DNA of 64,000 nucleotides from Clostridia bacterium (GCA_045643205.1 JAZUKI010000003.1:150516-214515); one strand, 5' to 3'. Shown: positions 3,601 to 24,805, counted from the stretch's first letter. Translations and numbers: made by a program. The notes: generated from the letters alone by a model not told the origin.

Positions 3601-4467
3601 TTGAAAGAAATAATAAGTTTAAAAAACATTGTTAAGAAATTTTATATTGATCAACCTAATGAACTTGAAATTCTTCACGGAATTTCGCTAAAAGTTTATG
3701 ATGGTGAATTTGTTTCAATCGTTGGACCATCTGGTTCAGGAAAATCAACTTTGATGAATGTTATTGGAGCATTAGATAGACCAACATCAGGAGAATATAT
3801 ACTGGATGGAATTGATGTAGAAGAATCAGATGACCTTGAAATTTCAGCAATAAGAAACCAAGAAATAGGATTTGTTTTTCAAACATACAACTTGATTTCA
3901 AAATCTAATGCTTTAAAAAACGTTGAATTACCAATGCTTTACGCAGGGGTAAAAGCAGAAGAACGTAAAAAGAGAGCAATGGAATTATTAAAGCTTGTTG
4001 AAATGGAAGAAAGAGCAAAACATTTACCTGAAGAATTATCAGGAGGTCAAAAACAAAGAGTCGCAATAGCTAGAGCAATGGCAAACGATCCAGCAATAAT
4101 ACTTGCAGATGAGCCAACCGGTGCACTAGATAGTAAAACAGGAAGATTAGTTATGGACTTGTTCCATAAATTAAATGAGCAAGAAGGGAAAACAATTATT
4201 TTAATAACACACTCAAATGAACTTGCAAGAGAAACAGATAGAATAATTTCGATTCGTGATGGCAACATCGAAAGCGAAGAAATTTTAAAACCTGAAAAAT
4301 ACAAAGACATAGAGATTGATAAAAGCAATCTTAACAATAAAATAGAAACAAATAATATAAAACCAAAGAAAACTAGAACAAGAAAAAACAAAAAAGAAAT
4401 AATTAATAAAAAAACAGACGATGAAATAATAAAAAACAATGAAGAAACAGATAATGAGGAGAAGTAA
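3601..4467 (+). CDS. ABC transporter ATP-binding protein (MacB/LolD-type ATPase)
   Basis: Walker A GPSGSGKST, signature LSGGQKQRVAIARA, Walker B ILADEPTGALD. K/N-rich C-terminal tail. TTG start after an AAGAGGA RBS. Confidence 0.85.
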   Translation: MKEIISLKNIVKKFYIDQPNELEILHGISLKVYDGEFVSIVGPSGSGKSTLMNVIGALDRPTSGEYILDGIDVEESDDLEISAIRNQEIGFVFQTYNLISKSNALKNVELPMLYAGVKAEERKKRAMELLKLVEMEERAKHLPEELSGGQKQRVAIARAMANDPAIILADEPTGALDSKTGRLVMDLFHKLNEQEGKTIILITHSNELARETDRIISIRDGNIESEEILKPEKYKDIEIDKSNLNNKIETNNIKPKKTRTRKNKKEIINKKTDDEIIKNNEETDNEEK

Positions 4468-5774
4468 TGCTAATTTGGGAAAATATTAGTATGGCCTTAG
4501 GAAGCCTAAAAGCTAATAAAATGCGTGCATTTCTAACAATGTTAGGAATAATAATTGGTATAGCAGCAGTAATAACAATTTACACTGTTGGAAATTCTTT
4601 AACTATATCTATTTCAGAAAGTATGCAAACACTTGGAGCAAATGATATTTATGCAATGGTTTCTCCAAAAAAATCAGAGGAAGGAGAGAAATCATTAAAA
4701 GATCAACTTGATGGAGTAAAGTTTCCAAAAGTCACATCTACAAGTGAATTGCAATCTTCTGATTTAATAAGCAAAGATATGATTGACCAAGTTTGTGAAA
4801 AATTTAAAGATGATATTTTTGCTGTTAATGTAGAAAGGATGGTTGGAATAGTTAACGCTACTGCTAATAACAATAAAACATCAATAAATATAGTTGGCGC
4901 AAGTGCAGGATATTTCTTAACCGCAAATTTAAATGTTGTAGCAGGAAATATGTTTAACGAAAACAATATTCAAGACAAATCAAGAGTAGTAATGATTTCA
5001 GATGAAACAGTAGATGAGTTATTTGCTGGAGAAGTAGACAAAGCAGTAGGTTCAGATATTGTTTTAACAATAAACAATCAAGACATAGATTTTACAATCA
5101 TAGGTGTATATGAATTTTCAAGTTCAAATGGTATGGGTGGAGCAGGAATGCTTTCAACAATGGTAAACAGTTATGCTTATATACCAATGCCAACAGCAAA
5201 TGATATTTTACATCAAGAAAATTCATATCAATACATTGAAATTATTCCAAAGACAGGAGTAAATTCTGAAAAACTTTCAAATAGTATTGGTGAATTTTTT
5301 AAACAATTTTACAAAAATAATTCAAGCTATGAAGTAAGTGTTTTCACAATGTCAGGAATGGTTTCAATATTTACAAATTTATTGAATACATTAACAACAG
5401 CAATTGCAATTATTGCAAGTATTGCATTACTTGTTGGTGGAATTGGCGTTATGAATATAATGTTGGTTTCAGTAACAGAAAGAACAAGAGAGATTGGAAT
5501 TAGAAAAGCGTTAGGTGCAAAAAACTCATCTATTAGAGAACAATTTATTGTTGAGGCAATGATAATTTGTTTAATAGGTGGAATAATAGGTGTAACACTT
5601 GGTATAGTTTGCGGAAGTTATTTAACAAATCTTTTAGGATATCCAGCAGCACCTTCAATTCCAGGAATTATAATTGCATTGTTATTCTCAATGGGTATAG
5701 GAATATTCTTTGGATATTATCCTGCAAACAAAGCAGCAAAGATGAATCCAATAGATGCATTAAGATACGAATAA
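4467..5774 (+). CDS. ABC transporter permease, FtsX/MacB-like
   Basis: N-terminal TM, large extracytoplasmic domain, C-terminal FtsX four-helix bundle (ERTREIGIRKALGA motif). Start overlaps the stop of the ATPase gene. Confidence 0.8.
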   Translation: MLIWENISMALGSLKANKMRAFLTMLGIIIGIAAVITIYTVGNSLTISISESMQTLGANDIYAMVSPKKSEEGEKSLKDQLDGVKFPKVTSTSELQSSDLISKDMIDQVCEKFKDDIFAVNVERMVGIVNATANNNKTSINIVGASAGYFLTANLNVVAGNMFNENNIQDKSRVVMISDETVDELFAGEVDKAVGSDIVLTINNQDIDFTIIGVYEFSSSNGMGGAGMLSTMVNSYAYIPMPTANDILHQENSYQYIEIIPKTGVNSEKLSNSIGEFFKQFYKNNSSYEVSVFTMSGMVSIFTNLLNTLTTAIAIIASIALLVGGIGVMNIMLVSVTERTREIGIRKALGAKNSSIREQFIVEAMIICLIGGIIGVTLGIVCGSYLTNLLGYPAAPSIPGIIIALLFSMGIGIFFGYYPANKAAKMNPIDALRYE

Positions 5775-14598: not shown

Positions 14599-16002
14599 TT
14601 ATTCTTTTTTAAACTTCTTTTTCTCATGATGCGTAAATAATGAAATCAATCCAATTAGCAAAACACCAAAAACAACTGCAATTAAAACTAAATTAGAATT
14701 ATCAACTTCAGTCACATCTTGATCAGCAATTAAATCAACTTTATAGCTTTGCCCATCAATAGTATAAGTAGCGTAACCGCAAACCTCACCTTTTTTTATT
14801 GGAGCAAATGATTTGTTAATAGTAACGTTTGGAGTAACATCTAAAACTTGATTATCTTTTAACAAAACAGAAACAGTATACTTAGCAATTAAGTTTAATG
14901 AGTTTTTACCAGTAGGCGCATTCATGACAAACAAGTTTCTAACAAATCCACCTTCTTTTACAAGAGGCATTGAATTAAAATGAGAAAAGCCATATTCAAA
15001 CAATTTTTTGCAATCAGCTTCTCTACAAATATCAGCATCTTTCTTACTATATTTTATTCCGTGTAAAATAACACAAATTAAATTTCTATCATCTTTTTGA
15101 GCAGTAGCAACAATACAATTTCCAGCTGCGTTTGTAAATCCTGTTTTCAAACCATTAGCATATTCATAATATGTAGGAAGATCAGGCATCATCAAAAGAT
15201 TTGTTCTTTCCATGACTCTTTTACTTCCTTTATATAATGAAGAATTTTCAAGAGTATAAGACTCTTTTGCAGCAAGAGATCTAATATAACTATCTCTATA
15301 AGCTACTTGTCCGATTATAGCAAGGTCTAAAGCAGTAGAATAATGATTTTCATCGTGAATACCATTTGGATTTATAAAATGAGTTCCAGTACAACCTAAT
15401 GACTTAGCACGTTCATTCATCAATTCTGAAAACTTAGCTATATTTAATTTAAATTCTATTTCTGCCTCAGAAGAACTATCTGTTTTAAAATCATTACCAC
15501 CAGCACCAACATATTGCGCCAAAACAAAAGCAGCATCATTAGCTGAAGCGACCAACAACATATTCATAAGTTGTTCAACAGTAAAAACTTCACCGGGAAC
15601 AATTTTAGCTACTTGATATGAATATGGAACTGATTTTACAGCAAAATGACTTACTGTAACTTCAGCAGACAAATCTTTGCAAGTTTCTAATACAACAATT
15701 GCTGTTAACAATTTAGTTGTACTTGCAGGAAACATTTTTTGTGTTGAATTCTTTTCATACAAAATCTTTGAAGCATCAGCATCAATTAAAATTGCAGCAT
15801 CAGAATTAATTTTCGGAACATCAACATTTTGCGTTACTTGCGCAACTGAAAAAGGATTAGAACTTTGCTCTAGTTTCGAATAACTAGAAACATCAACAAC
15901 ATTTGCTGTTTCTTCTGCATAAGAATTTATTGGAACTGCTAGGGAATAAATATTAAAAACAAAAACAAAAGACAGTAATAATGTAAATATTTTATTTTTC
16001 AA
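14599..16002 (-). CDS. D-alanyl-D-alanine carboxypeptidase (PBP5-type, S11 peptidase)
   Basis: Signal peptide, SxxK motif ASTTK, SGN and KTG motifs. C-terminal TM anchor. Confidence 0.85.
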   Translation of the reverse strand: MKNKIFTLLLSFVFVFNIYSLAVPINSYAEETANVVDVSSYSKLEQSSNPFSVAQVTQNVDVPKINSDAAILIDADASKILYEKNSTQKMFPASTTKLLTAIVVLETCKDLSAEVTVSHFAVKSVPYSYQVAKIVPGEVFTVEQLMNMLLVASANDAAFVLAQYVGAGGNDFKTDSSSEAEIEFKLNIAKFSELMNERAKSLGCTGTHFINPNGIHDENHYSTALDLAIIGQVAYRDSYIRSLAAKESYTLENSSLYKGSKRVMERTNLLMMPDLPTYYEYANGLKTGFTNAAGNCIVATAQKDDRNLICVILHGIKYSKKDADICREADCKKLFEYGFSHFNSMPLVKEGGFVRNLFVMNAPTGKNSLNLIAKYTVSVLLKDNQVLDVTPNVTINKSFAPIKKGEVCGYATYTIDGQSYKVDLIADQDVTEVDNSNLVLIAVVFGVLLIGLISLFTHHEKKKFKKE

Positions 16003-16080
16003 ATTTATCTCCTAAAATAGTCTGTTAACACAAACAATATTTTAACAAGGATGCATAAATAAATCAAGAAAGGACTTTAT

Positions 16081-16917
16081 ATGATACAAAAAATCAACTC
16101 ATTTATAAAAAAACTAAATAAAACACAAAAGATAATTTTAATTATTATTGCAATAATAATTATTGGAGCGGCATTATTTTTATTTTACCAATATTTAAGC
16201 AACGAAGAAATAGAAAGTTCAAACCAAATTCAACAAAACAACAATTCAATTTCTAATAAGGAAAACAAACAAAACGATAAAGAAAATTCAGAAATGACAG
16301 AAAGTTCAAACAATAAACAAAACTCAAATACAATAGAAAACAAAGAGACAAAAAATAAAGAAGCAGAAAATGAAATTGAAGACTACAATACACAAGATGA
16401 TTTTATAGATGAAAATTCGTCATCATTGTTTGGAACAAAACAATTAAGTAATATTGTTGTGCATGTAATAGGCGAAGTAAAGAAACCTGGAGTTATTAAA
16501 TTGAAAGAAGGATCAAGAATAATAGATGCAATTAATAAATGCGGAGGACAAACTGAAGATGCAGATTTATCAAAAATAAATTTAGCATATGTATTAGATG
16601 ATGGTTCACAAATTTATATTCCATGCGTTAAAGATGATGTACAAAACACAACTATAATGAAAACAGAAGCAGGAAATAATATTGTGGTAAATAATGTAAT
16701 ACAAAGTGACGATGAAAAAAGTATTAAAGTAAATTTAAATACTGCAACATTAGAGAAACTTATAACACTTCCAGGAGTAGGAGAATCAACAGCACAAAAA
16801 ATAATTGAATATAGAAATAAAAATAAAAAATTTAAAACGATTGATGAATTAAAAAATATATCAGGCATAGGTGAAGAAAAATTTAATTCATTGAAAGAGT
16901 ATGTGTATATAAAATAA
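16081..16917 (+). CDS. comEA: Competence protein ComEA (SLBB domain plus tandem helix-hairpin-helix DNA-binding domain)
   Basis: N-terminal TM helix, low-complexity linker, SLBB segment VVHVIGEVKKPGVIKL, and HhH motifs LPGVGESTAQKII...ISGIGEEKF. Confidence 0.8.
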   Translation: MIQKINSFIKKLNKTQKIILIIIAIIIIGAALFLFYQYLSNEEIESSNQIQQNNNSISNKENKQNDKENSEMTESSNNKQNSNTIENKETKNKEAENEIEDYNTQDDFIDENSSSLFGTKQLSNIVVHVIGEVKKPGVIKLKEGSRIIDAINKCGGQTEDADLSKINLAYVLDDGSQIYIPCVKDDVQNTTIMKTEAGNNIVVNNVIQSDDEKSIKVNLNTATLEKLITLPGVGESTAQKIIEYRNKNKKFKTIDELKNISGIGEEKFNSLKEYVYIK

Positions 16918-17200
16918 AAAAGTATTGAAAAAATAATTTAATTAGATTATAATTTTATTATAGTTGAAAAGAACAAAAGAAAAATTAAAAACACAAAAGA
17001 AGTCAAAAAATGAGAAATACTCGAAACGGCTGAAAATAGTACGTTAGAAGAAATCATATTTGATTAGTTAGTGGGCTAACTATTTTGTAAAAACTATTTT
17101 GTTCTTTACAAGATTTTAAATTTCAAATATGAATTTAAAAGCAAAAGATACAGCAGAGACTTACACCATGAAAAACTGTTCGGGAAAGGAGGATCTGAAA

Positions 17201-17491
17201 ATGGCAATCAAGAAAACTGTAAAGAAAGTAGCAGCTAAGAAACCAGCTGCAAAGAAAGTAGCAGCTAAGAAACCAGTTGCAAAGAAAGCAGTAGCTAAGA
17301 AACCAGCAGCTAAGAAAGTTGTTAAGAAAGCAGTAGCTAAGAAACCAGCTGCAAAGAAACCAGCAGCTAAGAAAGTTGTTAAAAAAGTAGCAGCTAAGAA
17401 ACCAGTTGCAAAGAAAGTAGCAGCTAAGAAACCTGTTAAAAAGGTAGCAGCTAAGAAACCAGCAGCTAAAAAAGTAGCTAAAAAGAAATAA
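17201..17491 (+). CDS. Histone H1-like lysine/alanine-rich nucleoid-associated protein built of AKKPAAKKV repeats
   Basis: GGAGG RBS, then ATG at 17201 (the track's 17129 start has no RBS). The protein is almost entirely KKPAAKKVAAKKP repeats, encoded by tandem DNA repeats of about 30 bp. Confidence 0.6.
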   Translation: MAIKKTVKKVAAKKPAAKKVAAKKPVAKKAVAKKPAAKKVVKKAVAKKPAAKKPAAKKVVKKVAAKKPVAKKVAAKKPVKKVAAKKPAAKKVAKKK

Positions 17492-17520
17492 TTAATTTAA
17501 TAAGTAAATTATTAATTAGA

Positions 17521-17556
17521 ATATAGTTAGTCGCTTGACTAACTATATTTTTTTGC
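17521..17556 (+). terminator. Intrinsic terminator of the H1-like gene; its right arm supplies the -35 of the marR promoter
   Basis: ATATAGTTAGTC-GCTT-GACTAACTATAT, a perfect 12-bp stem, followed by TTTTTTT. Confidence 0.7.
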
Positions 17557-17580
17557 GTATAATAGTTAGCATGCTAACAA
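17535..17580 (+). promoter_or_regulatory. marR promoter (TTGACT-17-TATAAT) with near-palindromic operator TAGTTAGCATGCTAACAA at +1
   Basis: -35 at 17535-17540, -10 at 17558-17563, palindrome at 17563-17580. The same TAGTTAG/CTAACTA half-sites recur at 17065-17082 and 17524-17545. Confidence 0.55.
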
Positions 17581-17604
17581 TACGGAAAGAGAGGAAAATA
17601 ACAG

Positions 17605-18069
17605 ATGAAGAACAGTGAAAAATCTATATCAGTCGAAATTAAGAAATTTGATGTAGAAATAGGAAGATACCTATTTGAATTAAACAAAGACAGTAAACAA
17701 CCAAGTCCACTTCAAGGAAGAATAATTCAATATCTAAGCAAACATGATGGTGAAGATGTTTATCAAAAAGACTTGGAAGAACATTGTGAAGTAAGTAAAG
17801 CTACAATGTCACAAACTTTAGATGCTCTAGAGTATGAAAAAATGATTATTAGAAAAGCTGACAAGAATGACGCAAGAAGAAAAAGAATTGTTTTAACAAA
17901 GAAGAGCAAAGATAAAGTTAAAGAGATTAGCAAAGTATTTGCTTCATTAGATAAAAAAATCACAGAAGGAATTAGTGAAAAAGAAGCAACAGCATTTTTA
18001 AATACAATTGAAAAAATGAAAGCTAATCTTTCAAAAATTCCTAATAAAAAGAAAAACGGAGGTAAATAA
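17605..18069 (+). CDS. MarR-family transcriptional regulator
   Basis: Winged-helix MarR core (ATMSQTLDALEYEKMIIRKADKNDARRKRIVLT). Immediately upstream of an ABC exporter pair. Confidence 0.8.
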   Translation: MKNSEKSISVEIKKFDVEIGRYLFELNKDSKQPSPLQGRIIQYLSKHDGEDVYQKDLEEHCEVSKATMSQTLDALEYEKMIIRKADKNDARRKRIVLTKKSKDKVKEISKVFASLDKKITEGISEKEATAFLNTIEKMKANLSKIPNKKKNGGK

Positions 18070-19814
18070 TGGGCTTAATTAGAAAGCTAGCAAAGTCAGT
18101 TAGAGAGTTCAAAAAATATGCTATTCTTTCGCCTATAGCAATTGCAGGAGAGTCTTTATTAGAAACAGCAATACCATACATAATAGCTATATTACTTAAA
18201 GGTGTCGAAGGCGGCAACATGGAAACAGTATGGAAAATTGCTTTAGTATTATTAGGACTTGCATTCCTATCATTAGCGTGTGCATCTGTAGCAAGTATAT
18301 CAGCTGCCAAAGCTTCTGCAGGTTTTGCAAAAAACTTAAGAAAAGACTTATATTATAAAATTCAATCATTTTCATTTGCAAACATTGATAAATTTTCAAC
18401 AAGTAGTTTAATAACAAGATTAACTACAGACGTTACATATATTCAATCAGCATTCCAAATGATAATTAGAGGTGCAGTAAGAGCACCATTTATGTTTATA
18501 TCAGCTCTTATATTTGCATTACAAATCAATGCAAAATTAGCATTAATATTTGTAGTAGTATTACCACTATTAGTACTTGCATTACTTATAATGGCTAAAT
18601 TTGCACTTCCAATAATACAAAGAGTATTTAAAAGATATGACAAATTAAACAATGTTGTTGAAGAAAATGTTTCATCAATTAGAGTTGTAAAATCATTTGC
18701 TTCTGAAGATCAAGAAAAAAAGAAATTTGCAGATGCATCTCAAGCCATCTTCAAAGATTTTTCAAAAGTAGAAAAAATCACAGCAGGATTATCACCAATT
18801 ATGCAATCAGCAATTTATATTACTATGATATTAATTTGTTGGTTTGGTGCAAACATAATTGTTCAAACAAATGCAACAGAATTAGATGCAACTCAATTAA
18901 TGACAATGCTTACATACTCAATTCAAATCTTAACAAGTTTAATGATGTTCTCATTAATGTTTGTTATGATTATCATGTCAGAAGCATCAGCAAAGAGAGT
19001 TGTTGAAATTTTAGATGAACAACCAGACATTACAGTTCCAGAAAATCCAGTTAAAGAAGTTTTAGATGGATCAATTGATTTTGAAAACGTTTCATTCAGT
19101 TACGTTAAAGATAAGAACAAAGAATGTTTAAAAGATATCGATTTACACATTAAGTCAGGCGAAACAATTGGTATCATTGGCGGCACAGGTACAGGAAAAT
19201 CAACATTAGTAAACTTAATTTCAAGACTATATGATATTACAGAAGGAAGTTTAAAGGTTGGTGGAGTAGAAGTTAAAAATTACAACATAAAAGCATTAAG
19301 AGATGCTGTTTCAGTTGTTCTTCAAAAGAATGTTTTATTCACAGGAACAATCACTGAAAATATTAAATGGGGAGATAAAGATGCAACTCAAGAAGAAGTT
19401 GAAAGAGTCTGTAAATTAGCTCAGGCTGATAGTTTCATCCAAAAATTCCCTGATCAATACAACACATTAATTGAAGAAGGCGGAAGCAATGTTAGTGGTG
19501 GTCAAAAGCAAAGACTATGTATTGCAAGAGCACTTTTAAAGAAACCTAAGATTCTTATTTTAGATGATTCAACAAGTGCAGTTGATACAAAAACTGATAG
19601 ATTGATTCAAGACGCTTTAAAAAATGAAATACCAGAAACAACAAAAATTATTATCGCTCAAAGAATTTCATCAGTTGAAGATTGCGACAGAATTATCGTA
19701 ATGGATGATGGAAAAATTGACGGAATTGGTACTCACGACGAGCTTGTTAAGAACAACAAGATTTATCGTGAAGTATATGAATCTCAAATGAAGGGAAGTG
19801 ATATCGATGAGTAA
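18069..19814 (+). CDS. ABC exporter, fused permease/ATP-binding subunit (heterodimer half 1)
   Basis: Six TM helices, then an NBD with Walker A GGTGTGKST, signature VSGGQKQRLCIARA and Walker B ILDDSTSAVD. Confidence 0.85.
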   Translation: MGLIRKLAKSVREFKKYAILSPIAIAGESLLETAIPYIIAILLKGVEGGNMETVWKIALVLLGLAFLSLACASVASISAAKASAGFAKNLRKDLYYKIQSFSFANIDKFSTSSLITRLTTDVTYIQSAFQMIIRGAVRAPFMFISALIFALQINAKLALIFVVVLPLLVLALLIMAKFALPIIQRVFKRYDKLNNVVEENVSSIRVVKSFASEDQEKKKFADASQAIFKDFSKVEKITAGLSPIMQSAIYITMILICWFGANIIVQTNATELDATQLMTMLTYSIQILTSLMMFSLMFVMIIMSEASAKRVVEILDEQPDITVPENPVKEVLDGSIDFENVSFSYVKDKNKECLKDIDLHIKSGETIGIIGGTGTGKSTLVNLISRLYDITEGSLKVGGVEVKNYNIKALRDAVSVVLQKNVLFTGTITENIKWGDKDATQEEVERVCKLAQADSFIQKFPDQYNTLIEEGGSNVSGGQKQRLCIARALLKKPKILILDDSTSAVDTKTDRLIQDALKNEIPETTKIIIAQRISSVEDCDRIIVMDDGKIDGIGTHDELVKNNKIYREVYESQMKGSDIDE

Positions 19815-21714
19815 GAAACAAAACCCTTCAAACAAAGCAGGAAATCCAATGCAAGGTTCAATGAAAAAAGGAACTTTAAGTAGACTAATAAAAATAATTT
19901 GGAAAGATTACAAAGTAAGATTAATAATTGTAATCGCATGTTTAATTATAAACAGTATAACAATGGCACTATTAACAACAGCATTAAAACCATTAATCGA
20001 TGATTGTATCACACCATTTATAGGACAACAAAGTCCTGATTATGCAAAATTAGTTCAGTACATATTATATATAGGTGCAGTAGGACTAGCAGGAATTATC
20101 GCATCATTCGTTTCAAACATAGTGTTAGTAACAGTTTCACAAGGTACACAAAGAAAAATAAGAAATACATTATTCAACAAAATGCAATCATTCCCAATTA
20201 AATTCTTCGACACACACAAACACGGAGACATCATGTCAGTTTATACAAACGACGTAGATACATTAGAAGAAATGATCGGAAGAAGTTTACCAGAAGCATT
20301 AACATCAATAATAAAAATAATTTCATATTTAATATCAATGATTTCATTAAGTCCACTATTAACATTATTTGTTGTAATATTCTCAATACTAACAATATTA
20401 GTAACAAAAGGATTTGCACAACGTTCAGGAAAATATTTTGTTGGACAACAAAAATCAATCGGTAAAGTTAACGGATTCATTGAAGAAATGCTAAACGGCC
20501 AAAAGGTAGTAAAAGTTTTCACACACGAAGAAATTGCAAAGCAAGAATTCGACAAAGTTAATGAAGAATTATTCGAAAACATGAATCAAGCAAACAAATA
20601 TGCAAACTTAATGATGCCAGTTGCACACAACTTAGGAAATATACAATATGTAGCAATTGCAGCATTAGGAACATTATTAGCATTAGCAGGTCAACTTCCA
20701 TTAACATTAGGAACATTAATTGCATTCCTTCAATTATCAAGACAATTCACACAACCAATTGACCAATCAATGATGCAAATCAACTCAATCATCCGTGCAA
20801 TGGCCGGAACATCAAGAGTTTTCGAGATGATGGACATTGAAGAAGAACAAGACAACGGATATGTTACATTAGTAAATGTAAAAGAAGATAAAAACGGCAA
20901 CCTAATAGAATGTGATAAAAAGACAGGAAGATGGGCATGGAAACATCCTCATCATGATGGAACAACAGAACTCATAGAGCTAAAAGGAAGAATAGATATA
21001 GAAGATATCAACTTCAGTTACGATGGTGAAAAAGAAGTTCTACATCACATTTCATTATACGCAAAGCCAGGACAAAAGATTGCATTCGTTGGTGCAACAG
21101 GTGCTGGAAAAACAACAATCACAAACTTAATCAACAGATTTTACGAAGTAGATGAAGGAAAGATTAGATATGATGGAATTAACATCACAAAAATAAAGAA
21201 AGCCGACCTAAGAAAATCATTAGGAATGGTTCTACAAGATGTTAATTTATTCACAGGAACAATCAAAGAAAATATTAAGTATGGTCGTCCAGATGCAACA
21301 GACGAAGAAGTTATCGAAGCGGCTAAATTAGCAAATGCCGATGGTTTCATCAGACACTTGCCAGAAGGTTACGACACAATGCTTACAGAAAACGGTTCAC
21401 AATTATCACAAGGCCAAAGACAATTGCTATCAATTGCAAGAGCTGCAATCGCAAATCCACCAGTAATGATTTTAGACGAAGCAACATCAAGCATTGACAC
21501 AAGAACAGAAAAGATCATTCAAGACGGTATGGACAAATTAATGGAAGGTAGAACAGTACTAGTAATTGCACATAGACTTTCAACAGTTAAAAATGCAAAA
21601 GCCATAATGGTTATGTCTAACGGCGAAATAATTGAAAGAGGCGACCACGAGCAATTAATAGCTCAAAGAGGCGAGTACTATCAATTATATACAGGAAACC
21701 TAGAACTTGAATAA
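19807..21714 (+). CDS. ABC exporter, fused permease/ATP-binding subunit (heterodimer half 2) with about 50-aa insertion before the NBD
   Basis: ATG at 19807 overlaps the upstream stop. Walker A GATGAGKTT, signature LSQGQRQLLSIARA, Walker B ILDEATSSID. Confidence 0.85.
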   Translation: MSKKQNPSNKAGNPMQGSMKKGTLSRLIKIIWKDYKVRLIIVIACLIINSITMALLTTALKPLIDDCITPFIGQQSPDYAKLVQYILYIGAVGLAGIIASFVSNIVLVTVSQGTQRKIRNTLFNKMQSFPIKFFDTHKHGDIMSVYTNDVDTLEEMIGRSLPEALTSIIKIISYLISMISLSPLLTLFVVIFSILTILVTKGFAQRSGKYFVGQQKSIGKVNGFIEEMLNGQKVVKVFTHEEIAKQEFDKVNEELFENMNQANKYANLMMPVAHNLGNIQYVAIAALGTLLALAGQLPLTLGTLIAFLQLSRQFTQPIDQSMMQINSIIRAMAGTSRVFEMMDIEEEQDNGYVTLVNVKEDKNGNLIECDKKTGRWAWKHPHHDGTTELIELKGRIDIEDINFSYDGEKEVLHHISLYAKPGQKIAFVGATGAGKTTITNLINRFYEVDEGKIRYDGINITKIKKADLRKSLGMVLQDVNLFTGTIKENIKYGRPDATDEEVIEAAKLANADGFIRHLPEGYDTMLTENGSQLSQGQRQLLSIARAAIANPPVMILDEATSSIDTRTEKIIQDGMDKLMEGRTVLVIAHRLSTVKNAKAIMVMSNGEIIERGDHEQLIAQRGEYYQLYTGNLELE

Positions 21715-21923
21715 AAACAATGGGGAGAAGAAATTCTCCTCATTTTTTATGTGGATTTTGTGGAACAAGTCAACACAAAGCCTAATTTTTTGTGAAATTA
21801 GAACTATTACAAAGATTACAAAACTATAAAATCGATACCCAAAATATTGAAAAATATATGTATTTTATGATAATATAAACATTGTAAATAAAATAATCAA
21901 TATTTAAGAAAGAGGTGTTAATT

Positions 21924-23135
21924 ATGGGATTATTACAAGCATTTACAGGAGCAATTGGTGGAACATTTGCTGATCAATGGAAAGATTATTTAGTTCCAGA
22001 AGCAGGTATTCCAGGAACAGCAGGTATTTTCCACGCTGTTAAGGTTGGAACAAATAATGGAAGAGGATCAAATACAAAAGGATCTGAATGCATTATTTCA
22101 GATGGAAGTAAAATCGTAGTTCCAGAAGGAACAGCACTTATCACAATGCAAGATGGTGCAATCACTGGAGTTATTACACAACCAGGTGGATATATTTGGG
22201 CATCAAATGATCCAAACGCAAAATCAATTTTTGCAGGAGATGGAATCATTGATTCATTAGTAAAACAATCTTGGGAAAGATTTAAATTTGGTGGAATGCC
22301 AGGTTCTCAACAAGTTGCTTTATATGTAAACTTAAAAGAAATACCAAACAATAGATTCGGTACACAATCTGAAATTTATTGGGATGATGCATATTTAAAT
22401 GCACAAGTAGGAGCAGTTACAAGAGGAACATATACTCTTCAAATCTGTGACCCAATTCTATTCATCAAGAACTTTGTACCACAACAATACTTATTACCAG
22501 ACGGACCAGTATTTGACTTTGCAGATATGGACAACGATGCTGGAGCACAATTATTCAATGAAGTAGTTGGAAGCTTATCAGCAGGTTTCTCAAACTATAC
22601 AAACGATCCAAGCAAAGGAAATAGAATCACAAAGATTCAAGGTGATCAAATTGGATTCGCACAAAGCTTATCACAAGCTGTAGAAGACGGATATCAATGG
22701 AAAACAAATCGTGGATTACAAATTATCAAAGTTGCAATCCAAGCTATCGAATACGACGCAGATACTAAAGCATTATTATCTGATGTTAAGAAAGCTGACG
22801 CATTATCTGGAGCTAGAGGAAATTCATTCATGCAACAAGCTGCTGCAAGAGGAATTCAAGGCGCTGGAGAAAACGGACAAGGTGGAATGGGAATGGCATT
22901 CATGGGAATGGGTGCAAATGCTGCAGGCTCAATGATGAGTGGTTTACAACAACAACCTGGAGTTCAAACAAACAACTTATTCCAACAACCAGCACAACAA
23001 GCTGCACCAGTAGAACCAGCTGCACCAGCTGAAGATCCATTAGAGAAAATTGGCAAACTTAAACAACTATTAGATATGGGTGCTATTACTCAAGAAGAAT
23101 TTGATGCACAAAAAGCTAAATTATTAGGATTATAA
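21924..23135 (+). CDS. YdjI-like SPFH-domain protein with G/M/Q-rich linker and C-terminal SHOCT domain
   Basis: GAGGTG RBS, then ATG at 21924. C-terminus LEKIGKLKQLLDMGAITQEEFDAQKAKLLGL is a SHOCT motif. Overall resembles Bacillus YdjI. Confidence 0.55.
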   Translation: MGLLQAFTGAIGGTFADQWKDYLVPEAGIPGTAGIFHAVKVGTNNGRGSNTKGSECIISDGSKIVVPEGTALITMQDGAITGVITQPGGYIWASNDPNAKSIFAGDGIIDSLVKQSWERFKFGGMPGSQQVALYVNLKEIPNNRFGTQSEIYWDDAYLNAQVGAVTRGTYTLQICDPILFIKNFVPQQYLLPDGPVFDFADMDNDAGAQLFNEVVGSLSAGFSNYTNDPSKGNRITKIQGDQIGFAQSLSQAVEDGYQWKTNRGLQIIKVAIQAIEYDADTKALLSDVKKADALSGARGNSFMQQAAARGIQGAGENGQGGMGMAFMGMGANAAGSMMSGLQQQPGVQTNNLFQQPAQQAAPVEPAAPAEDPLEKIGKLKQLLDMGAITQEEFDAQKAKLLGL

Positions 23136-23233: not shown

Positions 23234-24805
23234 ATGGCAGACAATATACAAGGTCAACCAGTTCAAGGTCAACCAGTTCAAAATCAACCAGTTCAAAATC
23301 AACCAATTCAAGGTCAACCTATCCAAAGTCAACCAATCCAACCATCATTCGATAATTCAGTTACAACAAAAGAAGATGGACAAACAAAATGTCCTCAATG
23401 TGGATCAACTGATATTTCAGTTAACGCAAAAAAAGGTGTTTTAAGATGTAACTATTGTAGACATGAGTTTCAACCAGAAGTAGCTGCTGGAATGAATGGA
23501 GATATTACAAAATTACAAGGAATCTGGGTTGGAAAAGGCGCATGTGATATTAAAAAAGGTGAACAATCAAAAGAAATGTTAACATTAAAATGTACAAGCT
23601 GTGGAGCAGAAGTTGTTATCGATACAAAAGAATCAACACAAGCAAGATGCCACTGGTGCAGAAACATGTTATCAATTCAAAACCAAATTCCAAATGGCGC
23701 AGTACCAGACGCTGTTTTGCCATTTAAACTTACAAAGCAACAAGCTCAACAAAAAATTGAAGAATTTGTTGGAAAGAGAAAATTCTTTGCACATCCTAAA
23801 TTCAAGGAAGAATTCACAACAGAAAATATTATGGGTGTTTACATGCCTTACATGAGCATTAACGCAAATACACACGTAAGACTTGAAGGTTTAGGAGAAA
23901 TAAAAACAAGACAATACACAGTTAAAAGAGGAGATTCATATCATACTTATTATGATGCAGATGAATATCGTGTTGGAAGAGAATACGACGCTGCAATCAA
24001 AGGTTTGACAATCGAATCAAACTCACAAAGAATGTCAAATGACAAAGGCGAAACAAACAACATCATCAATGCAATCATGCCATTTGATATGGAGAACTGC
24101 GTAACATGGGACGCAAACTATTTACATGGATATACATCAGAAAGACGTGATACAAACGTTAATCAACTTAAAGAATATGGCGATGAAAAAATTAGAGGTG
24201 TTGCTAGATATACAATAAATGACACATTAGCAAAATATGATAGAGGTGTTTCTTGGAAGAGCCAAAACATTGATATTATTGGAGAACAATGGAGTGCAGT
24301 ATATCTACCAGTATGGTTATATAGTTACTATGAGAACAAAGGAAATGGTCAAGGAACAAAGCACTACGTTGCAGTAAACGCACGTACACAAGAAACAATG
24401 GGATCAGTTCCAGTTTATATGCCATTATTATTAGGAATCTCAGCAATTATTGAGATTATAGGTATCATTCTATTCGCTATATTATTAGGAGTAAAGAACG
24501 GATACAAATTCAGCTGGTTATTCTTATTACCAGGAATTATTTATGGACTATCTATCTATGGAAAATACAGAAACAAGAATGCAAAACACGTTTATGAATT
24601 AGAAACATTACAACAAAAGAATAACATTAAAGGATACGATACATTTAATAGACATCGCAAAGGCCTAAGCAATTCAATGATAGAAGGTTATAACAACAAA
24701 GCAATAAGCACATCAACATCAGAAAAAGTATTAAACTCAGTAACTGGAGGAAATGTACTAGGAACAGTTGCAAACATTGGATTAAACAATATATTACATA
24801 GATAA
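23234..24805 (+). CDS. Double zinc-ribbon membrane protein (YdjG/YdjH-like) with N-terminal (GQPxQ)n repeats
   Basis: Two CxxC...CxxC ribbons (CPQCGS..CNYCRH; CTSCGA..CHWCRN). Two C-terminal TM helices. 15-bp DNA tandem repeats at 23246-23335. Confidence 0.5.
   Translation: MADNIQGQPVQGQPVQNQPVQNQPIQGQPIQSQPIQPSFDNSVTTKEDGQTKCPQCGSTDISVNAKKGVLRCNYCRHEFQPEVAAGMNGDITKLQGIWVGKGACDIKKGEQSKEMLTLKCTSCGAEVVIDTKESTQARCHWCRNMLSIQNQIPNGAVPDAVLPFKLTKQQAQQKIEEFVGKRKFFAHPKFKEEFTTENIMGVYMPYMSINANTHVRLEGLGEIKTRQYTVKRGDSYHTYYDADEYRVGREYDAAIKGLTIESNSQRMSNDKGETNNIINAIMPFDMENCVTWDANYLHGYTSERRDTNVNQLKEYGDEKIRGVARYTINDTLAKYDRGVSWKSQNIDIIGEQWSAVYLPVWLYSYYENKGNGQGTKHYVAVNARTQETMGSVPVYMPLLLGISAIIEIIGIILFAILLGVKNGYKFSWLFLLPGIIYGLSIYGKYRNKNAKHVYELETLQQKNNIKGYDTFNRHRKGLSNSMIEGYNNKAISTSTSEKVLNSVTGGNVLGTVANIGLNNILHR

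Follow-up and report, generated by a model that had tools for sequence, protein, structure and literature searches.

MepR of Staphylococcus aureus is a dimeric repressor of the MarR family that recognizes inverted GTTAG repeats with a 4-bp linker (GTTAGNNNNCTAAC), one such operator lying over the -10 box and transcription start site (TSS) of mepR and two abutting ones at mepA (Birukou et al. 2014, PMC3936728; PDB 4LLL/4LLN). PefR of Streptococcus agalactiae, another MarR-family repressor, senses haem and controls its own marR-ABC-ABC operon (pefRCD) as well as a second operon (pefAB), with a DNA signature that differs from GTTAG (PMC8044140). Here, we describe a locus that resembles both systems within a 64,000-nt stretch of DNA from a Clostridia bacterium (GCA_045643205.1, JAZUKI010000003.1:150516-214515; hereafter the window), in which a marR gene and two ABC exporter genes follow a gene coding for a lysine/alanine-repeat protein similar to the C-terminal tail of histone H1. 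A sequence-only reading of this DNA had pointed out three related palindromes around the repeat gene and the marR promoter, and had proposed that the MarR repressor binds all three, thereby linking the expression of a histone-like protein to that of a multidrug-type exporter. We recovered the three palindromes (sites 1 to 3, Table 1) and found that they fall into two kinds of element, which can be told apart by their spacing and by a single compensatory substitution. With moderate confidence, we propose a MepR/PefR-like repressor with two predicted targets, namely the heterodimeric ABC exporter operon that encodes it and, probably, the H1-like gene; the histone-like gene and the exporter would then probably be switched on together.

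The locus compares closely with mepRA in several respects. Both regulators belong to the MarR family of dimeric repressors, the operator signature is identical and has AT-rich flanks, an autoregulatory site lies over the -10 box and TSS, and one repressor serves two separate target sites, which is a prediction in the present case. Furthermore, the Asp-x-Arg motif of the wing is shared, and abutting double sites such as those at mepA are found at many distant Clostridia loci. However, MepR is only a remote homologue of the protein described here (E ~1e-8 pairwise, 1e-18 with a family profile), its recognition residues T-G-P-T are replaced by S-K-A-T, and the pump associated with it is of the MATE type, whereas here the operon of the regulator itself codes for a heterodimeric ABC exporter. 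Moreover, the second site described here is deep in the leader of the H1-like gene, neither over a promoter nor at the pump. The resemblance to PefR, a homologue by profile search, extends to the organization of the operon, with marR followed by two ABC exporter genes, and to the predicted action of one MarR protein on its own operon and on a second unit. In contrast, the second target of PefR is a transporter operon, whereas here it would be the gene of a basic repeat protein. In what follows, the sequences, geometry, statistics, conservation and family-wide position of the sites were computed, and the recognition of its operator by MepR is taken from the literature.

Sites 1 and 3 share the same core and spacing

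Sites 1 and 3 have in common a 7-N4-7 arrangement and the core GTTAG-N4-CTAAC, whereas the arms of site 2 follow a 7-N8-7 pattern. The heptamer TAGTTAG by itself is not enriched in the window (12 found vs 8.1 expected), and five of the 12 copies are clustered within 505 bp (17065-17569). Full palindromes in which TAGTTAG and CTAACTA are separated by 0 to 12 nt were found twice in the window vs 0.00 expected, and both the 7-N4-7 form with at most one mismatch and the GTTAG-N4-CTAAC core were also found twice, vs 0.01 expected for each.

We compared the window with five close relatives that have the same gene order and a MarR protein 83-89% identical, namely L001, from a Clostridia metagenome-assembled genome, and L005 to L008, from metagenomes. 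The three palindromes are invariant in all five while neighboring bases vary; the variable positions include the 3 nt that separate the T-tract from the -10 box, the marR 5' untranslated region and all the sequence upstream of the first -35 box. This pattern indicates that the palindromes are under selection, the kind of which these relatives are too similar to reveal.

These observations make it very improbable that the palindromes are coincidental products of AT-rich DNA or relics of duplication devoid of present function. Although the region and its genome are AT-rich (~29% GC) and the heptamer alone is not in excess, the full palindromes are expected only 0.00 to 0.01 times and do not vary where adjacent bases do. 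Furthermore, their position is conserved family-wide, and the core of site 1 survives in a more distant lineage (L009, described below) despite diverged flanks.

Site 3 is the predicted autoregulatory operator of a widespread marR-ABC clade

An alignment of MarR with distant homologues, in which the motif YQKDLEEH is invariant, was used to scan metagenomes and led to 52 loci. ABC exporter genes are located directly 3' of marR in nearly all of the distant loci with enough downstream sequence, indicating a wide distribution of the marR-ABC-ABC operon in Clostridia. Palindromes of the GTTAG-N4-CTAAC type immediately follow the -10 box in more than 15 of the distant loci (27-37% identity, GC content of 27-51%), as exemplified by TAAAAT-AGTTAGCATGATAACTA and TTGTTAG-GTAC-CTAACAA. 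At many distant loci, two 5-N4-5 sites abut each other with a period of 15 bp, as in GTTAG-ACGG-AAAAC-A-GTTCG-ATAG-CTAAC of Anaerotignum, and a single operator is present at other loci, including the window. Across 256 kb of fetched loci, the perfect core was found 17 times vs 0.26 expected, and only in marR promoters and repeat-gene leaders.

A 22-bp operator matrix was built from 13 distant marR promoter sites, none of which comes from the window lineage. When the 64-kb window was scanned with this matrix, site 3 came out on top with 29.3 bits. Site 3 begins on the last base of the TATAAT box and spans the expected +1 of marR, with which an overlap had been noted from the sequence alone, and the middle palindrome does supply the TTGACT -35 box of the same promoter; both hexamers are invariant in the relatives. 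Given that the core directly follows the -10 box at over 15 such distant operons, site 3 is the predicted conserved autoregulatory operator of the clade. The earlier proposal that the palindrome at the marR +1 is a MarR operator is thus upheld both by the same core in distant orthologous operons and by the operator described for MepR (PMC3936728). The hallmark of the MepR-like subgroup, inverted repeats of GTTAG that are separated by 4 bp and cover the -10 box and TSS of the regulator's own gene, is present at site 3.

Double GTTnG/CnAAC sites, which immediately follow the -10 box and lie ~20-60 nt upstream of marR, were observed at L002, L013, L019, L021, L030-L033, L039, L045-L047, L049 and L053. 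At L009, ~310 nt of A-rich, repeat-laden sequence (1575-1889) separate the marR promoter from marR, with a 56-bp unit repeated 2.1 times at 96% identity along with further periods of 17-47 bp. Nothing comparable exists in the window lineage.

Site 1 is a putative second operator in the leader of the repeat gene

Site 1 is located at approximately +105 to +122 of the repeat-gene leader, ~110 nt downstream of the inferred start. It scores 17.8 bits with the operator matrix, which ranks it second in the 64 kb and places it within the range of the training sites, and the next match (11.8 bits) falls in a coding region. Only 1% of simulated 64-kb sequences reach at least 17.8 bits.

Beyond the close relatives, in which site 1 is invariant, a lysine/alanine repeat gene was found at a single locus, L009 (MarR 57% identical). 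Its upstream neighbor gene is different and its repeat-gene promoter is homologous (TTGCAA-17-TATAAT). The repeat gene adjoins marR in both lineages carrying it despite different upstream neighbors. In L009, site 1 reads AAGTTAG-GGGG-CTAACTA, with an intact core and diverged flanks, and is followed by GTTAATG without a T-run. Furthermore, the RNA hairpin that site 1 can form in the window is weak (-5.7 kcal/mol, z -0.9), no better than that of shuffled sequence, and was not called by the terminator scan. Because the core is kept in L009 without a T-run and the hairpin is weak, we conclude that site 1 is not a terminator and that it is conserved in sequence, not merely as a stem; most likely, it is a second operator of the same repressor. 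The link between the repeat gene and the exporter operon proposed from the sequence alone is plausible through site 1, given its identical core and spacing, its second rank with the matrix and the core kept in L009, and probably does not hold through site 2.

Alternatively, only site 3 would be functional as an operator, the repeat gene would be merely adjacent, and site 1 would be kept as a hairpin of the leader RNA (for stability, processing or protein binding) or as the DNA site of another protein. We regard this alternative as doubtful. It would have to accommodate an exact 10/10 core with the right spacing less than 500 bp from the cognate gene, where ~0.01 are expected per 64 kb, in addition to the confinement of perfect cores within the 256 kb mentioned above. 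Moreover, the hairpin resembles that of shuffled sequence, and RNAalifold applied to five sequences provided no covariation support (covariation term +4.68, unfavorable, with the pairs of the site 1 hairpin all invariant), the alignment being too shallow to exclude structure.

Several points nonetheless weigh against two predicted targets, and some of them favor this alternative. A position far downstream of the start instead of over the promoter is unusual for operators of MarR-family repressors. In both lineages, the loop of site 1 is G-rich (TGGG in the window, GGGG in L009) and more conserved than the variable spacers of promoter sites; the whole leader is conserved, and site 1 is not its sole constrained block. 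Since the stem of site 1 never varies, a DNA site and a sequence-specific RNA element are not separable. Site 1 of L009 scores only 10.4 bits, the promoter site of L009 is degenerate (GTTCG-GTAG-CAAAC), and the presence of the repeat gene in only two lineages makes the comparative evidence thin. On the protein side, the T-G-P-T stretch with which MepR contacts TTAG (Thr60-Gly61-Pro62-Thr63) is S-K-A-T in the window, with the last Thr alone kept; hence, the DNA-recognition rules of MepR may not be exactly transferable. Site 1 could also be bound by a different protein, namely a further MepR-like paralogue encoded elsewhere in the genome. Roadblock repression at site 1 is an assumption of the analysis. 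Finally, the perfect heptamers found in the terminator of the window lineage (site 2) are a somewhat improbable coincidence.

The leader of the repeat gene

The promoter of the repeat gene is invariant in the relatives, and the sequence just upstream is unalignable: 7 nt (16918-16924) separate the comEA stop codon from the -35 box in the window, where L001 and L005-L008 have 70-130 nt of poly-A-rich sequence. The leader shows ~89% column identity among the close relatives and has conserved blocks in common with L009. A scan of 15800-22400 against Rfam at E≤1 returned no match, hence no known riboswitch, leader or small RNA was found for this leader.

Other candidate elements of the leader were considered and rejected. 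A leader peptide (MRNTRNG) is reduced to four codons in L006 and is not regarded as coding. The hexamers adjacent to site 1 are too poor for a promoter overlapping it. Likewise, for a candidate TTTACA...TATGAA promoter situated past site 1 and ahead of the gene, the spacer shifts from 16 to 19 nt within the close relatives, and L009 has no counterpart of it (by eye). We also observed by eye that CAGAGACUU at ~17160-17200 of the leader (CAGAUUUAUCU in L009, ~950-994) can pair with the Shine-Dalgarno region GGAGGAUCUG. This pairing, which is longer in L009, may act as a translational control.

Site 2 is a predicted terminator that donates the marR -35 box

The hairpin formed by site 2 is strong (stem of 12-15 bp, -16.7 kcal/mol, z -5.6) and is followed by a T7 tail. 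Its helix is paired at 12 of 12 positions in four sequences, with one compensatory change from a U-A to a C-G pair in L009. The homologous hairpin of L009, ATAGCTAGTC-ATAA-GACTAGCTAT followed by T5, was called by the terminator scan. The pair change leaves the stem 100% paired and turns GTTAG into GCTAG. The strong hairpin, the T7 tail and the compensatory pair agree with the earlier identification of this palindrome as the terminator of the repeat gene, and we conclude that site 2 is a predicted intrinsic terminator whose 3' arm donates the -35 box of marR.

The sequence-only reading had one repressor bind all three palindromes, which would make site 2 an auxiliary operator over the marR -35 box. 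For site 2, this claim is probably wrong, and we find such an arrangement improbable. The half-sites of site 2 are 8 bp apart instead of 4, its best score with the operator matrix is -3.4 bits, a value exceeded at 56 window positions, and L009 keeps the hairpin while losing GTTAG; moreover, a role as terminator accounts in full for the hairpin and its T7 tail. Reading site 2 as two overlapping sites in the N4 register results in 2 and 3 core mismatches, with one good half-site paired with GTCAA or GTCGC, and these candidates were rejected as canonical sites. GTCAA carries the G-to-A change at position 5 that abolishes binding in MepR (PMC3936728). Conversely, both arms of site 2 contain perfect TAGTTAG/CTAACTA heptamers, for which the a priori expectation is ~1 in 1000 for a random stem. 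These heptamers do not vary within the window lineage, in which terminator and promoter are directly adjacent, and site 2 overlaps the -35 box, as does a MepR half-site at mepA (PMC3936728). A single compensatory step separates the perfect heptamers of the window lineage from the state seen in L009. We treat the half-site resemblance of site 2 as a coincidence, at most a weak auxiliary feature. Look-alike palindromes may therefore hide different kinds of element, which calls for methodological caution.

The operon encodes a MepR/PefR-like repressor and a predicted heterodimeric exporter

The marR product matches Pfam families MarR_2 (6.8e-10, 39.4 bits, cut-off 27) and MarR (3.5e-7, 30.5 bits, cut-off 24.6), and all its matches among solved structures are MarR-family proteins. 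A family-profile search of solved structures retrieved as nearest relatives the structural-genomics MarR proteins 3jw4 (5.7e-23) and 3bro, followed by MepR (1.6e-18) and then PefR (5.5e-17). The wing segment D-A-R-R-K aligns with D-T-R-R-K of MepR and thus keeps the Asp-x-Arg motif. In MepR, Asp85 and Arg87 of this motif allow the wings to reach the AT-rich flanking minor grooves, and the contacts of the recognition helix to TTAG are van der Waals only (PMC3936728). The flanks of sites 1 and 3 are AT-rich, as expected for such wing contacts. A search with the MarR protein of L009 for intermediate lineages returned only L009 MarR and the window protein.

The three genes of the operon touch or overlap at their ends and share one terminator, at 21719; this is the organization of a PefR-type operon. 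Domain matches confirmed the MarR-family regulator and the ABC exporter noted previously, the regulator gene being followed by two overlapping half-transporter genes whose products both have ABC_membrane and ABC_tran domains. The first half-transporter has a Walker B motif without the catalytic Glu (ILILDDS) and a canonical signature (VSGGQ), and the second has a canonical Walker B motif (MILDEAT) and a non-canonical signature (LSQGQ). The lack of Glu in ILILDDS together with LSQGQ predicts one degenerate and one consensus ATP site, in line with the heterodimeric exporter that had been proposed. Heterodimeric ABC exporters with one degenerate ATP site include BmrCD, LmrCD, PatAB, EfrCD and TM287/288; the present pair is like them in its two adjacent, overlapping genes, each coding for a transmembrane domain (TMD) and a nucleotide-binding domain (NBD), and in the Glu-less Walker B motif of one protein and the non-canonical signature of its partner. 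Among these, BmrCD relies on attenuation for its control and LmrCD on LmrR, a regulator of the PadR type, whereas the predicted regulator of the pair described here is a MarR protein. No NCBIfam equivalog cut-off was reached by either half-transporter.

The repeat gene encodes a short histone H1 tail-like polycation

The repeat gene most likely starts at ATG 17201, 7 nt behind the ribosome-binding site (RBS) AAAGGAGG, and not at the mechanical open reading frame (ORF) start 17129, because L009 has a stop codon in this in-frame upstream extension, which is therefore not a conserved ORF and was rejected as coding sequence. The resulting protein of 96 aa is composed of 43% K, 29% A, 17% V and 8% P, lacks acidic residues, and has a net charge of +41 and an isoelectric point of 11.6. 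It consists of 19 xxxKK units and thereby combines the Lys/Ala/Pro pentapeptide repeats and the high charge of the H1-like family. The 30-bp DNA repeat described by the sequence-only reading turned out to be a 15-bp unit (xxxKK) with a best higher-order period of 57 bp (3.2 copies, 88% matches).

The length variation that had been anticipated across strains is real and modest (96, 103, 96, 96, 96 and 93 aa). One case of 75 aa (L005) comes from a contig with evident homopolymer errors. In this contig, single-base homopolymer changes split the comEA-like gene (3603-4190) and cut short the repeat gene (4576-4803); rather than true pseudogenes, these probably reflect errors of assembly or sequencing. 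The length of Hc2 likewise varies between strains, through the number of repeats (PMC2848022).

The repeat protein scores above the cut-off of Pfam HC2 (44 bits vs 40) and below those of NCBIfam Hc2 (26.3 vs 135) and hist_H1_lk_Burk (36.9 vs 80). A search of a large database with the repeat protein returned only compositional matches, for instance tails of SWIB-domain proteins and a MetJ fusion, owing to saturation of its candidate list, and true orthologues were also not recovered. Since the match is compositional, family membership by common descent cannot be claimed; we suggest that the protein may act like a histone H1 tail or a polycation of the Hc2/AlgP type. It is akin to Hc2/HctB of Chlamydia, AlgP of Pseudomonas and the H1-like proteins of Burkholderia and Bordetella in its extreme K/A/P composition and pentapeptide repeats, and differs from them in being much shorter, without a non-repeat domain, and rich in valine. 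AlgP organizes polyphosphate granules (PMC9239181). The repeat protein could equally bind another polyanion. In the literature, we found no described clostridial H1-like protein and no characterized member of this marR-ABC clade.

Organization of the locus and other features of the window

Every gene within 16081-21744 is on the + strand (Table 1). Downstream of the operon, a 523-aa ORF (23234-24805, + strand) begins with seven N-terminal (G/N/S)QP(V/I)Q pentapeptide repeats, followed by zinc-ribbon-like Cys-x2-Cys motifs and C-terminal hydrophobic segments. The ORF ahead of it (21915-23135) contains a SHOCT domain, along with a weak SPFH-like match. Farther away, the window contains a full-length ornate large extremophilic (OLE) RNA gene (42950-43514, + strand; Rfam RF01071, 305.6 bits, E 5e-86), which is the sole non-tRNA Rfam match within the window.

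Table 1. Features of the repeat gene and marR-ABC-ABC region; positions are counted from the first nucleotide of the window.
Feature	Position	Strand	Evidence
ComEA-like gene, SLBB and HHH domains	16081-16917	+	Domain matches
Repeat-gene promoter, TTGAAA / 17-nt spacer / TATAAT	16925-16953	+	11/12 vs consensus
Leader of the lysine/alanine-repeat gene, non-coding, ~240 nt	16960-17200 (approximate ends, inferred start)	+	
Site 1, TAGTTAG-TGGG-CTAACTA, putative second operator	17065-17082 (core 17067-17080)	.	
Lysine/alanine/valine/proline pentapeptide-repeat gene, 96 aa, histone H1 C-terminal-domain-like	17201-17491	+	RBS, composition, Pfam HC2
Site 2, predicted intrinsic terminator, stem ATATAGTTAGTC/GACTAACTATAT, loop GCTT, T7 tail	17521-17555 (palindrome 17521-17548)	+	
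marR promoter, TTGACT (17535-17540) / 17-nt spacer / TATAAT (17558-17563)	17535-17563	+	11/12 vs consensus
Site 3, TAGTTAGCATGCTAACAA = TAGTTAG-CATG-CTAACAA, predicted autoregulatory operator	17563-17580 (core 17565-17578)	.	
marR, 154-aa MarR-family winged-helix repressor, MepR/PefR-like	17605-18069	+	Pfam, profile matches
ABC exporter half-transporter 1 (TMD-NBD)	18069-19814	+	Domains, motifs
ABC exporter half-transporter 2 (TMD-NBD), 17-nt overlap with the first ABC gene	19798-21714	+	Domains, motifs
Terminator of the marR-ABC-ABC operon, 11-bp stem then T-run	21719-21744	+	

Proposed model and significance

In the model that we favor, two adjacent transcription units would share one repressor. 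A repressor dimer would occupy GTTAG-N4-CTAAC directly after the -10 box at site 3, blocking RNA polymerase until it is released by a ligand, probably a substrate of the pump. The other unit would be monocistronic and strongly signaled: its promoter is close to consensus, its leader spans ~240 nt, and both its RBS and its terminator are strong. The same repressor on site 1 in this leader would lower the expression of the repeat gene, most simply as a roadblock to elongation, such that the basic protein and the exporter would be derepressed by the same signal. We infer the binding of MarR at sites 1 and 3, the repression exerted from site 1 and the biological role of the basic protein from the features described above.

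A more elaborate version of this model, which we consider rather unlikely as a whole, may be summarized as "pump and shield". A toxin-sensing MepR-like repressor would co-induce an efflux pump and an H1-like polycation, with a roadblock operator ~110 nt into the leader of the latter. Upon entry of a DNA-binding cationic or intercalating compound of the class of MepR inducers, the exporter would remove the compound, while the +41 repeat protein would coat the chromosome or another polyanion and compete with the toxin.

Our results provide a concrete predicted operator, GTTAG-N4-CTAAC, single or as two abutting copies, for a large uncharacterized marR-ABC-ABC clade of Clostridia, and tie this clade to the structurally understood mechanism of MepR. 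Furthermore, they nominate an unexpected candidate member of the regulon, a minimal 96-aa protein resembling the tail of histone H1; to our knowledge, H1-tail-like proteins have hardly been studied in Firmicutes. An operator deep in a leader and a histone-like polycation as a target are both uncommon features. If the predicted co-regulation is true, it would link an efflux-type stress response to the coating of the nucleoid or of another polyanion, and would offer an instance of a MarR operator that works from far inside a leader.

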